From assembly GCF_003334765.1 (NCBI RefSeq), contig NZ_QOWT01000002.1: a stretch of 64,000 nucleotides of DNA, one strand, 5' to 3'. The stretch comes from Escherichia coli. Lineage in GTDB: Bacteria > Pseudomonadota > Gammaproteobacteria > Enterobacterales > Enterobacteriaceae. This document shows, one piece after another, positions 19,709 to 34,337 of this stretch (the stretch's first letter is position 1; each line of letters opens with the position of its first letter). The translations under genes and the position numbers were made by a program. Below the pieces are notes generated by a model. It made no database searches. It had not been told where the DNA came from and saw nothing but the letters and a program-made list of their open reading frames with translations.

Positions 19709-22700
19709 ATGAGACACTTTATCTATCAGGACGAAAAATCACATAAATTCTGGGCGGTGGAGCAACAGGGAAACGAGTTGCATATCAGTTGGGGAAAAGT
19801 TGGCACCAAAGGGCAAAGTCAGATAAAAAGTTTTTCAGATGCTGCGGCAGCGGAAAAAGCGGAACTTAAGCTGATTGCGGAGAAGGTGAAGAAGGGGTAT
19901 GTGGAGCAAGCGAAGGATAATTCTTTGCAACCTTCCCAAACGGTAACGGGCTCTCTCAAGGTAGCGGACTTATCCACCATTATTCAGGAACAACCCTCTT
20001 TCGTAGCAGAAACCCGTGCGCCTGACAAAAATACAGATGCTGTTTTACCGTGGCTGGCGAAAGATATTGCTGTCGTTTTTCCGCCCGAAGTTGTACACAC
20101 CACGTTAAGTCATCGCCGCTTTCCCGGAGTTCCTGTTCAGCAAGCAGACAAATTGACCCAATTACGTCGCTTAGCCTGTAGTGTGTCGCAACGGGATAAT
20201 AAAACAGCCACATTTGACTTCAGCGCCTGTTCTTTAGAATGGCAAAACACCGTCGCCCAGGCGATCAGTCAGATCGACGGCCTGAAAACAACACAGTTAC
20301 CATCACCAGTAATGGCTGTACTCACGGCACTTGAAATGAAATGCACAAGATATAAAGTGCGTGAGGATGTTATGGATCAGATCGTCCAGGAAGGCGGTCT
20401 GGAATATGCTACTGATGTAATAATACACCTTCAACAGATTGATATTGAATGGGATTATGCGAATAATGTCATTATTATTCTGCCGTCTGGCATTGCACCT
20501 AGCTACTTGGAGCAATATTCCAGATTTGAATTACGCCTACGTAAACATTTATCACTGACGGAAGAGTCTCTCTGGCAAAAATGTGCACAAAAACTTATTG
20601 CCGCAATTCCACATATTCCAGAATGGCGGCAACCATTAATTGCTTTGTTATTACCCGAAAAACCAGAAATTGCACATGAAATTGCCCAGCGTCTACTGGG
20701 GCAAAAAAAATTACCCTCGCTTGAGTGGTTAAAAATAGTGGCGACTGATGAGCACATTCTTGCCTCATTAGAAAAATATCACGAACCATATGCCATTTTT
20801 GATGATTACTATTGTGGTGCGATATGGTCAGCCACCGTATTACAGGAGCAAGGTGTTGCAGCCCTGCCCCGATTTGCTCCCTATGCCGCAAGTGACTACT
20901 GCGCCGATGTGTTGCGTCATATCAATCATCCGTTCGCATTGACACTGCTTATACGTGTAGCCGGGCAAACTAAACGCTGTCACGATCGGATGACGAAAGC
21001 CATTGCTGCGTTCCCACATGCAGCAATGGCGGCACTGACGGAACTTCTTGGGCAAAAAGAAGAGAACAGTTGGCGCATTATGCTAATGACAATGCTTATC
21101 TCACAACCAGCACTGGCAGAACAGGTCATTCCCTGGCTCTCGACACCCGCAGTTGCCGTACTGAAATCATGCCAGCAACAACTGACACAGCCCTCAAACC
21201 ATGCCAGCGCCGATCTACTGCCAGCCGTAGTAGTCTCCCCTCCCTGGCTTTCGAAAAAGAAAAAATCGCCGATTCCGGTGCTGGATTTAGCGCCATTAGG
21301 CATTGAGCCAATCTGTTATCTGACAGAAGAAATCAGTAATCAACTTTTGGCGAAATATATCTGGTATTCAAAACACATCACGGTTAGCCATGAAGAAAGT
21401 ACTACCAACCTGTTGGCAAGGATGGGTTTTCAACGACGGATCGCTGGTACATATATTAAAGCTCCCGAAGCGGTAGTTGAGGCATGGCTAAATGAAGATT
21501 ATTCAACCTTACTAAGTGAATTTAAGGTGTTTCATTCACCTACCGGGCATTATTGGCAGTTGGGGATTTTGACAACATTGCCGCTGGAGAAAGCAGTAAA
21601 AGCATGGAATGCCCTTACCCTATCTCCACATACCGATACCGAATACTCCATGTTACATTTTGGACTCAAAGGGTTACCTGGGTTAGTAAACTCACTTGCA
21701 CGCTATCCACAAGAAGCCTTGCCCATCACGAATTACTTCGCAGCGAGTGAGCTGGCTCCTGCCGTCGCCCGTGCCTTCAACAAACTGAAAACGCTACGCG
21801 AAAACGCCCGTAGCTGGCTGTTGAAATACCCGGAACATGCCCTTACCGGCCTGCTGCCTGCGGCGCTCGGCAAAGCCGGTGAAGCACAGGATAACGCCCG
21901 CGCTGCCTTGCGTATGCTTACCGAAAACGGTCATCAGCCATTACTGCAAGAAATCGCCCGACGTTATAACCAGCCGGAAGTAACCGATGCGGTGAACGCT
22001 CTGCTTGCGCTCGATCCCTTAGATAATCACCCGACAAAAATCCCCACTCTTCCGGCCTTTTATCAGCCATCGCTCTGGACGCGCCCGGTATTAAAAGCAA
22101 ATGCCCAATCACTGCCAGATAGCGCCCTCCTCCACCTCGGTGAAATGCTCCGCTTCCCTCAGGAAGAGGCTCTGTATCCGGGATTATTGCAGGTGAAAGA
22201 CGTCTGTTCCGCCGACTCACTGGCGGGATTTGCCTGGGATCTGTTTACCGCCTGGCAGACCGCTGGCGCGCCGTCGAAAGAGAGTTGGGCGTTCACTGCG
22301 TTAGGCGTTCTCGGTAACGATGACACCGCCCGCAAACTGACGCCATTAATACGCGCCTGGCCTGGTGAATCCCAGCATAAACGCGCCACCGTTGGGTTGG
22401 ATATTCTCGCTGCTATCGGTAGTGATATCGCCCTTATGCAGCTTAACGGCATCGCCCAGAAACTGAAATTCAAAGCATTACAGGAGCGGGCAAAAGAAAA
22501 AATTGCCGACATTGCCGAGAGCCGCGAACTCACGGTGGCGGAGCTTGAAGATCGGTTAGCACCGGATCTCGGTCTGGATGATAACGGTTCGCTGCTGCTG
22601 GATTTTGGCCCACGGCAGTTCACCGTCAGCTTTGATGAAACCTTAAAACCGTTTGTGCGTGATGTTTCCGGCAGCCGCCTGAAAGACCTGCCCAAACCGA

Positions 22701-32337: not shown

Positions 32338-34337
32338 ATTCACTACGTCCGGAATTATTAGAACTGACACCACAGGCACTGACGGCGTTAAGCAATGCCG
32401 GTTTTGTTAAGCGCAGCCTTAAGGAACTGGAAAATGGCAACGTCCCGGAAATCAGCCATGAGAACGGCGCTTTAATCGCCACCTTCAGTGACGGTGTCCG
32501 TACCCAGCTGGCGAACGGCCAGGCACTGAAAGAGGCTCAGTGCACCTGTGGGGCCAGCGGCATGTGCCGTCATCGCGTGATGCTGGTGTTAAGTTATCAA
32601 CGACTTTGTGCTACCGCCCAGCCTGCGGAAAAAGAAGAAGAGTGGGATCCGGCAATCTGGCTGGAAGAACTGGCTACCCTGCCCGATGCCACCCGCAAAC
32701 GCGCGCAGGCGCTGGTCGCTAAAGGCATCACCATTGAGTTGTTCTGTACGCCGGGCGAAATTCCCTCTGCCCGCTTACCGATGAGCGATGTGCGTTTTTA
32801 TTCCCGCAGCAGCATTCGTTTCGCCCGTTGTGATTGTATTGAAGGCACTCTTTGCGAACATATCGTACTGGCGGTACAGGCCTTCGTCGAGGCCAAAGCG
32901 CAGCAAGCAGAATTTAACCATTTAATCTGGCAGATGCGCAGCGAACACGTCACATCATCTGACGATCCGTTTGCCAGCGAAGAAGGCCAAACGTGTCGTC
33001 AATATGTTCAGCAATTAAGCCAGGCATTATGGCTTGGCGGCATCAGCCAGCCGCTTATTCACTACGAGGCCGCTTTCAGCCGCGCGCAGCAAGCGGCGGA
33101 ACGCTGCAACTGGCGATGGGTGAGTGAATCGCTACGGCAACTGCGCGCCAGCGTTGATGCCTTCCACGCCCGCGCAAGCCATTATCATGCCGGAGAATGC
33201 TTGTGTCAGCTTGCCGCATTAAACAGTCGATTAAATTGCGCACACGAAATGGCGCAGCGCGACAGTGTTGGTGAAATTCCTCCCATGCCGTGGCGCACGG
33301 TCGTTGGCGCAGGCATTGCCGGAGAAGCAAAGCTTGATCATCTGCGGCTGGTGTCTTTAGGTATGCGTTGCTGGCAGGATATTGAGCATTATGGTTTACG
33401 CATCTGGTTTACCGATCCCGACACCGGCAGTATTTTGCACCTTTCGCGCAGTTGGCCGCGAAGTGAACAGGAAAACTCACCGGCAGCTACGCGTCGGCTG
33501 TTTAGTTTTCAGGCTGGCGCACTGGCGGGCGGGCAAATTGTTTCACAAGCAGCAAAACGCAGTGCCGATGGCGAGCTGCTGTTAGCTACCCGCAACCGCT
33601 TAAGCAGCGTTGTGCCGCTGTCGCCTGATGCCTGGCAAATGTTGAGCGCGCCGTTACGCCAGCCGGGCATTGTGGCTTTGCGGGAATATTTACGCCAGCG
33701 TCCCCCCGCCTGCATACGGCCTCTTAATCAGGTCGATAACTTATTTATTCTGCCGGTCGCTGAGTGTATTTCGCTCGGTTGGGATAGCAGCCGCCAGACG
33801 CTGGATGCGCAGGTAATCAGCGGCGAAGGTGAAGATAATCTGCTGACGTTATCACTGCCAGCCTCAGCCAGCGCGCCTTATGCCGTTGAACGCATGGCGG
33901 CGCTTTTGCAACAAACAGACGACCCCGTGTATCTGGTTTCTGGCTTTGTCAGTTTTGTTGATGGGCAATTGACACTGGAACCACAGGTAATGATGACAAA
34001 GACTCGTGCCTGGGCGCTGGACGCAGAAACTGCGCCTGTGGTGGTATCACTACCTTCTACCAGCGTTCTGCCTGTGCCGTCTACTGCTCATCAGTTGCTG
34101 ATGCGCTGCCAGGCGTTACTTATTCAACTGCTCCATAACGGCTGGCGCTATCAGGAACAGAGCGCTATTAGTCAGGCAGAGTTGCTGGCGAATGACCTCA
34201 CCGCGGTGGGTTTTTATCGGCTGGCACATGTGTTGGCACAATTTCGTAATACAGAAAGCGAGGCACGGGTAGAAGCAATGAATAACGGTGTTTTGCTTTG
34301 CGAACAATTATTCCCCATGCTTCAGCAACAAGGATGA
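32334..34337 (+). CDS. yehQ: Protein with two SWIM-type zinc fingers
   Basis: ORF 32310..34337; ATG at 32334 overlaps the yehP TGA (ATGA coupling); CTCGASGMCRH and CDCIEGTLCEH CxCx5CxH motifs. Exact start uncertain. Confidence 0.82.
   Translation: MNSLRPELLELTPQALTALSNAGFVKRSLKELENGNVPEISHENGALIATFSDGVRTQLANGQALKEAQCTCGASGMCRHRVMLVLSYQRLCATAQPAEKEEEWDPAIWLEELATLPDATRKRAQALVAKGITIELFCTPGEIPSARLPMSDVRFYSRSSIRFARCDCIEGTLCEHIVLAVQAFVEAKAQQAEFNHLIWQMRSEHVTSSDDPFASEEGQTCRQYVQQLSQALWLGGISQPLIHYEAAFSRAQQAAERCNWRWVSESLRQLRASVDAFHARASHYHAGECLCQLAALNSRLNCAHEMAQRDSVGEIPPMPWRTVVGAGIAGEAKLDHLRLVSLGMRCWQDIEHYGLRIWFTDPDTGSILHLSRSWPRSEQENSPAATRRLFSFQAGALAGGQIVSQAAKRSADGELLLATRNRLSSVVPLSPDAWQMLSAPLRQPGIVALREYLRQRPPACIRPLNQVDNLFILPVAECISLGWDSSRQTLDAQVISGEGEDNLLTLSLPASASAPYAVERMAALLQQTDDPVYLVSGFVSFVDGQLTLEPQVMMTKTRAWALDAETAPVVVSLPSTSVLPVPSTAHQLLMRCQALLIQLLHNGWRYQEQSAISQAELLANDLTAVGFYRLAHVLAQFRNTESEARVEAMNNGVLLCEQLFPMLQQQG

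Follow-up and report, generated by a model that had tools for sequence, protein, structure and literature searches.

A conserved MoxR-VWA system in the molR-yehQ region of Escherichia coli, with DUF4132 proteins as its proposed interchangeable receptors

The stretch of Escherichia coli DNA analysed here (64,000 nt of contig NZ_QOWT01000002.1, hereafter the window) carries seven co-oriented open reading frames (ORFs) between metG and yehR: a molR-like gene, yehI, yehK, yehL, yehM, yehP and yehQ. Our data reveal that this region harbours a core of five gene kinds that are held together in a fixed order, namely one or more genes for DUF4132 proteins (molR and yehI in the window), followed by yehL, yehM, yehP and yehQ, and that the system is conserved across at least four bacterial phyla (Proteobacteria, Myxococcota, Actinomycetota and Bacillota). 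We are highly confident that it represents a genuine, ancient and self-contained MoxR-VWA machine, for which the DUF4132 proteins are proposed as interchangeable receptors. Five E. coli genes long filed under unknown function are in this light one machine, present in at least 558 species-representative genomes.

Gene content of the system across bacteria

A scan of species-representative genomes found a relative of YehM in at least 558 of them, and the loci examined are the best 80 of these, from Enterobacterales, Burkholderiales, Xanthomonadales, Myxococcota and many Actinomycetota; the absence of a genus among these 80 is uninformative, and we make no quantitative claim on patchiness. The YehM family, DUF5682, comprises 2,261 clusters at 50% identity. 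When the six-frame ORFs of the loci were searched with iterated hidden Markov models built from the E. coli proteins, YehL, YehM, YehP and YehQ were found together in 76 of the 80 loci, and three of the four exceptions end at contig borders. Between one and four DUF4132 genes lie on the same strand, usually directly upstream, in 74 of the loci (one copy in 39 loci, two in 14, three in 20 and four in one). The order DUF4132, yehL, yehM, yehP, yehQ on one strand is kept nearly everywhere; two Burkholderia loci have the DUF4132 gene after yehQ. Annotation of contigs with Pfam recovered these five genes from Serratia, Variovorax, Iodobacter and one metagenomic contig, where their surroundings are unrelated, and a plasmid of Bacillus mycoides carries the full cluster with all motifs preserved, so that the range reaches Bacillota. 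No recurring sixth gene family or linked client emerged from the flanks of 83 loci beyond genus-level synteny.

An earlier note on the window, made from its letters alone, had read all seven genes as one candidate system. Their co-occurrence outside E. coli is strong for MolR/YehI (as DUF4132 proteins) together with YehL, YehM, YehP and YehQ; YehK, found only in Escherichia loci (4 of 87 loci), drops out of the system. Natural fusion proteins of about 1,120-1,180 amino acids, which join a complete YehM to a complete YehP and fall into several 50%-identity clusters, suggest that YehM and YehP touch each other. In Salinispora pacifica, a second, partial YehL-YehM pair (1-5200 of the locus) stands directly 5' of a complete cluster (5206-15400), an arrangement that suggests a tandem duplication of the system.

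The core genes and their landmarks in the window are listed below. Positions refer to the whole 64,000-nt stretch, and gene starts are taken from RefSeq and from alignments of homologues.

19682-19701, + strand: SOS (LexA) box of molR, AACTGGATAAAATTACAGGG, 8 nt 5' of the start codon
19709-23503, + strand: molR-like gene, intact, 1264 amino acids; WGR head, long variable middle and conserved C-terminal DUF4132 region; proposed receptor/adaptor
21209-21808, + strand: hypervariable cassette within molR, amino acids 501-700
23513-27145, + strand: yehI, 1210 amino acids; second DUF4132 paralogue, without WGR domain
27830-28918, + strand: yehL, 362 amino acids; MoxR-type AAA+ ATPase (the "engine")
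28929-31208, + strand: yehM, 759 amino acids; DUF5682; TraB/ChaN/Tiki-like domain (about residues 1-250) and alpha-solenoid; candidate hydrolase/scaffold
31201-32337, + strand: yehP, 378 amino acids; CoxE-type VWA protein with intact metal-ion-dependent adhesion site (MIDAS)
32334-34337, + strand: yehQ, 667 amino acids; SWIM zinc-finger protein with fast-evolving C-terminal region

The seven ORFs lie exactly where the earlier note had placed them, its gap of 10 nt between yehL and yehM and its overlaps of 8 nt (yehM/yehP) and 4 nt (yehP/yehQ) follow from the gene coordinates, and the domains that it had read in MolR, YehI, YehL, YehP and YehQ all hold in Pfam and motif searches. The block is 100% identical to the E. 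coli chromosome of strain HSP425, with the RefSeq annotation of which the ORFs agree. The five core genes of the window are intact and retain every catalytic motif. None of the seven proteins has a convincing transmembrane segment.

A conserved engine, a candidate hydrolase and polymorphic DUF4132 proteins

YehL is an AAA_5 ATPase (Pfam, E 4.6e-34) with the Walker A motif GEPGTAKS. Its closest solved structures by sequence are the AAA domains of Midasin, a MoxR protein and McrB, and weak matches extend to GvpN and chelatase-type ATPases. Conservation of at least 90% across phyla extends to 187 of its 362 residues, Walker A, Walker B and the sensor region among them, and the motifs GEPGTAKS, RFEEITR and ATANTRD...KRRF each reach this level among 84 sequences. 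YehP matches VWA_CoxE (PF05762) over its full length (E 3e-72) and has no extra domain; 159 of its 378 residues are at least 90% conserved across the set, among them the MIDAS residues D222-x-S224-x-S226, T281 and D307 of the pattern DQSGS...GGGT...SD. The median identity between E. coli and Actinomycetota amounts to 64% for YehL and 59% for YehP, and the Walker A/B, sensor and MIDAS residues are also retained in Bacillus. From this conservation of motifs we propose that the YehL-YehP engine is active.

YehM corresponds to DUF5682 across its full length in Pfam and evolves at an intermediate rate, with about 37-46% identity to the E. coli protein among the relatives listed. Its AlphaFold model (mean predicted local distance difference test score, pLDDT, 90.5) begins with an alpha/beta domain and continues as a helical solenoid, and two structure searches each put the same TraB-family protein first (Foldseek probability 0.97, E 0.03). 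The invariant residues H11/H12, E35, R175-E176 and G199-G200-x-H202 recur in the same order and with similar spacing in YbaP, a TraB-family protein of E. coli (invariant H41, E67, R228 and G249-x-x-H252), and the His/Glu/Arg/His pattern is retained in the Bacillus homologue. A profile comparison by hhalign with a shallow YbaP alignment was not significant (probability 0.2%, E 0.32), and Pfam gave no TraB, ChaN or esterase match for YehM. Because these profile-profile and Pfam tests are negative, we speak of a resemblance in fold and motif and claim no family membership. The N-terminal domain of YehM may thus be described as TraB/ChaN/Tiki-like in fold and as a candidate hydrolase, in the model the only candidate enzyme of the system besides the ATPase.

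YehQ bears two CxCxnCxH signatures, CTCGASGMCRH from residue 70 and CDCIEGTLCEH from residue 166, to which Pfam gives weak SWIM scores (E 1.3e-3 and 0.16). Of 79 family members, 77 have the first signature but only 41 the second. The protein evolves fast: identities lie between 26 and 36% (26% to Actinomycetota), and conservation of at least 90% is limited to 61 of its 667 residues. Neither YehM and YehQ nor the DUF4132 region gave a match in sequence searches of the PDB. In K-12, yehQ is annotated with 1,845 nt (15101-16945 of the extracted K-12 stretch) as compared to 2,004 nt in the window, and the gap between yehQ and yehR measures about 280 nt there as against 125 nt here; yehQ of K-12 may therefore be truncated, besides the broken molR of that strain.

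MolR combines a WGR domain (PF05406, residues 6-69, E 5e-18; match to PDB entry 2ra8 at E 2e-17) with a DUF4132 domain (residues 988-1173, E 1e-49 in Pfam). YehI aligns with residues 110-1204 of MolR at 37% identity and has no WGR domain, as is the case for about 40% of the DUF4132 genes in arrays. Conservation of the MolR family across phyla is confined to the C-terminal ~500 residues (about 680-1180), and the N-terminal two thirds of DUF4132 proteins evolve fast like YehQ, whereas YehL and YehP are highly conserved. The modelled DUF4132 module (MolR residues 925-1264, pLDDT 93.7) lacks a strong structural relative and resembles nothing enzyme-like, which fits a docking role. Orphan DUF4132 genes are present on plasmids of Rhodococcus and Acetobacter, where MoxR, VWA, DUF5682 and SWIM partners are missing and toxin-antitoxin genes (for a RES-domain protein, BrnT and VapC) are neighbours; DUF4132 proteins can therefore work, or at least persist, without the engine.

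Among E. coli strains, the number of DUF4132 genes upstream of yehK varies between one and three. Strains WP8-S17, 23CRST044 and TUM1857 possess a third WGR-DUF4132 gene between metG and molR, the product of which is 20-35% identical to MolR N-terminally and 50-76% C-terminally. The alleles of MolR are mosaics in which a hypervariable cassette stands out as a discrete unit: residues 501-700 of one allele are 48-52% identical to that of the window and the rest of it 95-98%, and another differs over the first 700 residues while the remainder is 94-98% identical. Among 5,426 complete genomes, the cassette (501-700) of the window is found at 95% identity or more in 3,397 genomes and at 90-95% in 2; in 1,531 it matches at 60-90%, mostly partially, and 498 genomes have no match. 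The C-terminal block of MolR, on the other hand, is at least 90% identical in 5,328 genomes. Discrete cassette classes beside a conserved C-terminus therefore speak for maintained alternative alleles and not for uniform decay.

Decay of single genes is common in the locus. The earlier note had stated that molR is broken in K-12, which we confirm, and pseudogenes hit different genes in different strains: molR in K-12, and yehL and yehM, yehI or yehK elsewhere. In 4,007 genomes, 80% or more of the block is still contiguous. Nucleotide identities of the yeh genes of the block (93-97%) are lower than those of yehR, yehS and btsS (98-99%), and one successful sublineage of ST131 harbours a resistance transposon within its DUF4132 region.

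Regulation, related systems and possible function

The sequence AACTGGATAAAATTACAGGG at 19682-19701 is an SOS box with a CTG-N10-CAG core. Its bare pattern is no rarer than chance in the window (17 matches, 17 expected); its position, -24/-25 from the start codon, is shared by E. coli, Klebsiella grimontii and Intestinirhabdus alba, and molR is included in a list of LexA-regulated genes with a known SOS box (PMC6590174). BglJ-RcsB directly activates the molR promoter (PMC3950696), and hns/stpA mutants show derepression of yehL and yehM (PMC3686432). Depletion of the damage repressor DdrO in Deinococcus strongly induces one DUF4132 gene and one WGR gene, and no co-regulation with molybdenum-cofactor genes was seen in that study (PMC8533742). 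The suggestion of the earlier note that the system is stress-triggered gains support from the presence of molR in the LexA regulon (PMC6590174) and of the box in the window. Its remark that the genes have no established function stands in so far as we found no paper that assigns a function to the system or links YehL-type MoxR proteins to phage defence; it overlooked the published regulation by SOS, BglJ-RcsB and H-NS, and also that YehL gives its name to one of seven MoxR subfamilies (Snider and Houry classification as cited in PMC3893208).

As founding member, YehL shares with this subfamily the AAA_5 domain and an adjoining VWA partner (yehP, in the same cluster in 76 of 80 loci), but the classification is one of the ATPase only, with no function attached. 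The obligatory association with DUF5682, SWIM and DUF4132 arrays, the TraB-like domain of YehM and the polymorphism of the receptors appear in no paper that our literature search found. A MIDAS-bearing VWA partner beside an AAA+ ring is likewise found in RavA-ViaA, CoxD-CoxE, NorQ-NorD and CbbQ-CbbO, and YehP is of the CoxE type; however, these chaperones consist of two components with a defined client, in contrast to the three further obligatory families and the lack of a linked client here.

A second parallel is offered by the MoxR-vWA ternary conflict systems (Kaur et al., eLife 2020, PMC7159879) of the VMAP, iSTAND, FtsH and beta-propeller types, which have in common with the present system a MoxR-vWA couple accompanied by further proteins, a conserved engine combined with fast-evolving sensor-like parts, and an enrichment in actinomycetes and myxobacteria. 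According to PMC7159879, the vWA pair of the ternary systems probably descends from one of the CoxD/CoxE type. Neither their third component nor their vWA-fused effector is present here, where the partners are DUF5682, SWIM and DUF4132 proteins; SWIM, WGR, DUF4132, TraB and YehL are not mentioned in PMC7159879, and YehL matches bpMoxR weakly (E 0.002). The system is no member of the ternary families, nor of any other described defence family. For the N-terminal domain of YehM, the best structural match is the superfamily of TraB/PrgY/GumN, Tiki, ChaN and erythromycin esterase, with the H...E...R...GxxH order and spacing of YbaP, to which YehM adds a solenoid of 500 residues that the others do not have. 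Because this superfamily spans proteases, esterases and a haem-binding protein, the chemistry cannot be read from the fold.

How the parts might work together can be outlined as follows. The DUF4132 proteins would act as interchangeable receptors, in which the WGR head and the hypervariable helical body recognise a signal, possibly a foreign protein or an end of damaged or foreign nucleic acid. The conserved DUF4132 module would dock on the engine, perhaps by placing an invariant acidic residue into the MIDAS site of YehP, and YehL would then remodel the complex using ATP. Licensed by such remodelling, the TraB/Tiki-like hydrolase domain in YehM could then work on a target, with the solenoid of YehM and YehQ as the putative scaffold that holds the domain. 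In E. coli, DNA damage (through LexA) and BglJ-RcsB switch the receptor gene on and H-NS silences yehLM, and given this combination of induction and silencing the machine would assemble only under stress.

We propose receptor-like behaviour for the DUF4132 proteins on the basis of their tandem arrays of one to four paralogues, the one to three copies among E. coli strains, the discrete alleles beside a conserved C-terminus and a DUF4132 module that is not enzyme-like in fold. A conflict flavour is plausible, considering the multi-copy, hypervariable receptors, the frequent pseudogenes, the silencing by H-NS, the induction by DNA damage, the Iodobacter copy next to a restriction-modification locus, the orphans among toxin-antitoxin genes and the parallel with the ternary systems. 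A surveillance (conflict) machine that is triggered by damage or invaders and ends in activation of the YehM hydrolase is the reading we prefer, tentatively and with somewhat less than even confidence, this functional label being the least certain step of the analysis. Doubtful, although worth stating, is the wider proposal of an unrecognised class of innate-immune-like surveillance machine, which would combine a universal MoxR-VWA motor, receptors that are hypervariable within species (WGR/solenoid/DUF4132), a YehM that cleaves a cellular or invader target and, in enterobacteria, an SOS-supplied receptor.

Several observations weigh against a surveillance role in conflict. No family of PADLOC-DB v2.0.0 matches any of the seven proteins at E <= 0.01, and no recognised toxic effector (nuclease, NADase or pore) is found among the encoded proteins. 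The system is rare on mobile DNA: a single weak match (YehM) was obtained in 50,697 phage records, and only 43 of 72,556 plasmid records match, most of which are chromids or mislabelled chromosomes. In E. coli the locus is fixed in the chromosome and each of the 5,426 complete genomes contains a match, which sets it apart from the usual accessory defence islands, and the flanks in Serratia, Variovorax and E. coli are mostly housekeeping or metabolic genes. A 64% identity of YehL between E. coli and Actinomycetota is unusual conservation for a defence system. Likewise, no SOS box was found upstream of the Serratia, Erwinia, Burkholderiales and Actinomycetota genes (for the last a Cheo-type motif was sought), so that SOS control is lineage-specific; universal SOS control of the system is rejected, as Burkholderiales and Actinomycetota have no LexA-type box. 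The defence-like conflict system of the earlier note accordingly gains support for its stress trigger and is weakened by the PADLOC search that it had recommended, which gave no match for any of the seven proteins, by the rarity in phages and plasmids and by the housekeeping flanks. A defence role is a plausible hypothesis.

Alternatively, the system might be a remodeller of the DNA-damage response without any conflict role, in which the WGR domain senses DNA breaks or ends, as it does in PARP enzymes, and the engine, together with the SWIM protein, remodels or clears a protein-DNA complex in repair or replication restart. WGR domains (PARP1-3) and SWIM domains (SWIM-containing SNF2 ATPases) are typical of DNA-transaction proteins, the highly conserved engine is chromosomal with housekeeping flanks, and molR belongs to the LexA regulon and has its SOS box. 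The DUF4132 and WGR genes of Deinococcus in the DdrO damage regulon (PMC8533742) point in the same direction. On the other hand, the WGR domain is lacking in about 40% of the array DUF4132 genes, including yehI, LexA-type boxes are missing beyond three enterobacterial genera, and nuclease, helicase and ligase domains are all absent. Discrete hypervariable alleles within a species and frequent pseudogenes are unexpected for a repair factor, and we know of no repair defect of K-12 that has been traced to the locus despite its broken molR. We consider this explanation rather unlikely. It is still less probable that the five proteins form a dedicated maturation chaperone for an unlinked client, e.g. 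in metal or cofactor insertion, with the DUF4132 proteins as substrate adaptors. Well-known MoxR-VWA pairs serve in this way, CoxD/CoxE for CO dehydrogenase, NorQ/NorD for NO reductase and CbbQ/CbbO for Rubisco. All experimentally studied MoxR systems cited in PMC3893208 are maturation factors, and YehP is a full-length CoxE-type VWA protein in a strongly conserved engine, the ATPase of which weakly matches GvpN and chelatase-type ATPases; the enrichment in metabolically versatile soil bacteria with large genomes among the matches listed would also suit a chaperone, and the old name of MolR, "molybdate regulator", would be a faint echo of it. However, known clients are usually neighbours and no family recurs in the flanks of the 83 loci, hypervariable multi-copy adaptors are unexpected for a single client, SOS and H-NS control are ill-suited to routine cofactor insertion, and molybdenum-cofactor genes were not co-regulated in Deinococcus (PMC8533742).

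A further possibility concerns E. coli only: the locus could be a largely decaying and silenced relic of a system that is functional in other phyla, its allelic diversity being the result of relaxed constraint and recombination and not of selection. This would agree with the different genes that are broken in different strains, the silencing of yehLM by H-NS (PMC3686432), the resistance transposon in the DUF4132 region of the ST131 sublineage, the toxin-antitoxin remnant and orphan ORF lodged in the locus, and the lower nucleotide identity of the yeh genes (93-97%) relative to yehR, yehS and btsS (98-99%). Yet the five core genes of the window are intact with all catalytic motifs present, 4,007 of 5,426 genomes retain 80% or more of the block uninterrupted, the cassette classes are discrete beside a C-terminus of at least 90% identity in nearly all genomes, and specific control of the molR promoter by LexA and BglJ-RcsB is retained; we regard a relic as very improbable. 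If the preferred reading of a triggered surveillance machine is true, it would introduce a new MoxR-VWA architecture, with polymorphic receptors that can be exchanged on one motor, would give first roles to DUF4132, DUF5682 and a bacterial WGR domain, and would explain the 25 unexplained years of molR in the SOS regulon. Residues, allele classes and switching-on conditions (DNA damage, BglJ-RcsB, loss of H-NS) are the experimental handles gained.

Two side observations belong to the question of mobile DNA. All seven proteins match PHROG families of unknown function (phrog_20839, 36602, 36295, 30700, 33984, 31592 and 29006) over nearly their full length, with very high scores and near-identical sequences; NCBIfam gives weak domain-level matches only. 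A phage origin was rejected because of the solitary weak YehM match in the 50,697 phage genomes, and the PHROGs in question probably derive from a prophage with borders drawn too wide, which could mislead phage annotation. On the 77-kb plasmid CP025783.1 of Iodobacter fluviatilis (1-22400), one DUF4132 gene is disrupted by an insertion sequence and the SWIM gene is split; the cluster is followed by a type I restriction-modification locus (HsdM, a DUF1016 protein and HsdS) and transposases.

The spacer between yehK and yehL and upstream surroundings

In other taxa the DUF4132 gene directly abuts the ATPase gene (the gap is about 60 nt in Serratia), so that yehK and a type I toxin-antitoxin locus, both inserted here, account for the separation of the two halves in E. 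coli. The window has at this place:

27206-27523, + strand: yehK, 105 amino acids, small acidic ORF; Escherichia only, outside the conserved system
27643-27718, + strand: OrzO-P-family small RNA (sRNA) gene, Rfam RF02083, an orphan antitoxin; embedded unrelated element

The sRNA is a full-length member of RF02083 (OrzO-P), with 101.3 bits against a gathering score of 60 (E 3e-16), a fold energy of -29.3 kcal/mol (z -3.5) and a promoter-like site just upstream (27601-27629). The intrinsic terminator that the earlier note had placed after yehK exists as a hairpin with a U-run (27693-27713), but belongs to this sRNA gene and is not simply an operon boundary. The same sRNA was found in K-12 and three other strains. 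A complete zor-orz pair occupies the site in other E. coli strains, as in TUM1857 (11980-12388 of its stretch), where a divergent toxin ORF ends in MDTLTQKLTVLIAVLELLVALLRLIDLLK, which we take to be the Zor peptide. The window contains no Zor toxin ORF (about 29 amino acids, hydrophobic, divergent) between 27524 and 27830: relative to TUM1857, about 395 bp including the toxin ORF are deleted both here and in K-12, which accordingly appears from its sequence to retain the antitoxin sRNA without its toxin. In contrast to zor-orz loci as such, the element is here an insertion with its toxin gene deleted and no component of the conserved system. The yehK gene is frameshifted in TUM1857. An ORF of 145 amino acids without Pfam match stands between the DUF4132 and ATPase genes of Variovorax (8387-8824 of its stretch), and shows no similarity to yehK at the matching position.

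Just upstream of apbC/metG, at 15000-16500 of the window, the GC content falls to 0.37-0.40. This stretch is the yehE end of the yehABCDE fimbrial operon, and its low GC content is typical of H-NS-silenced DNA.

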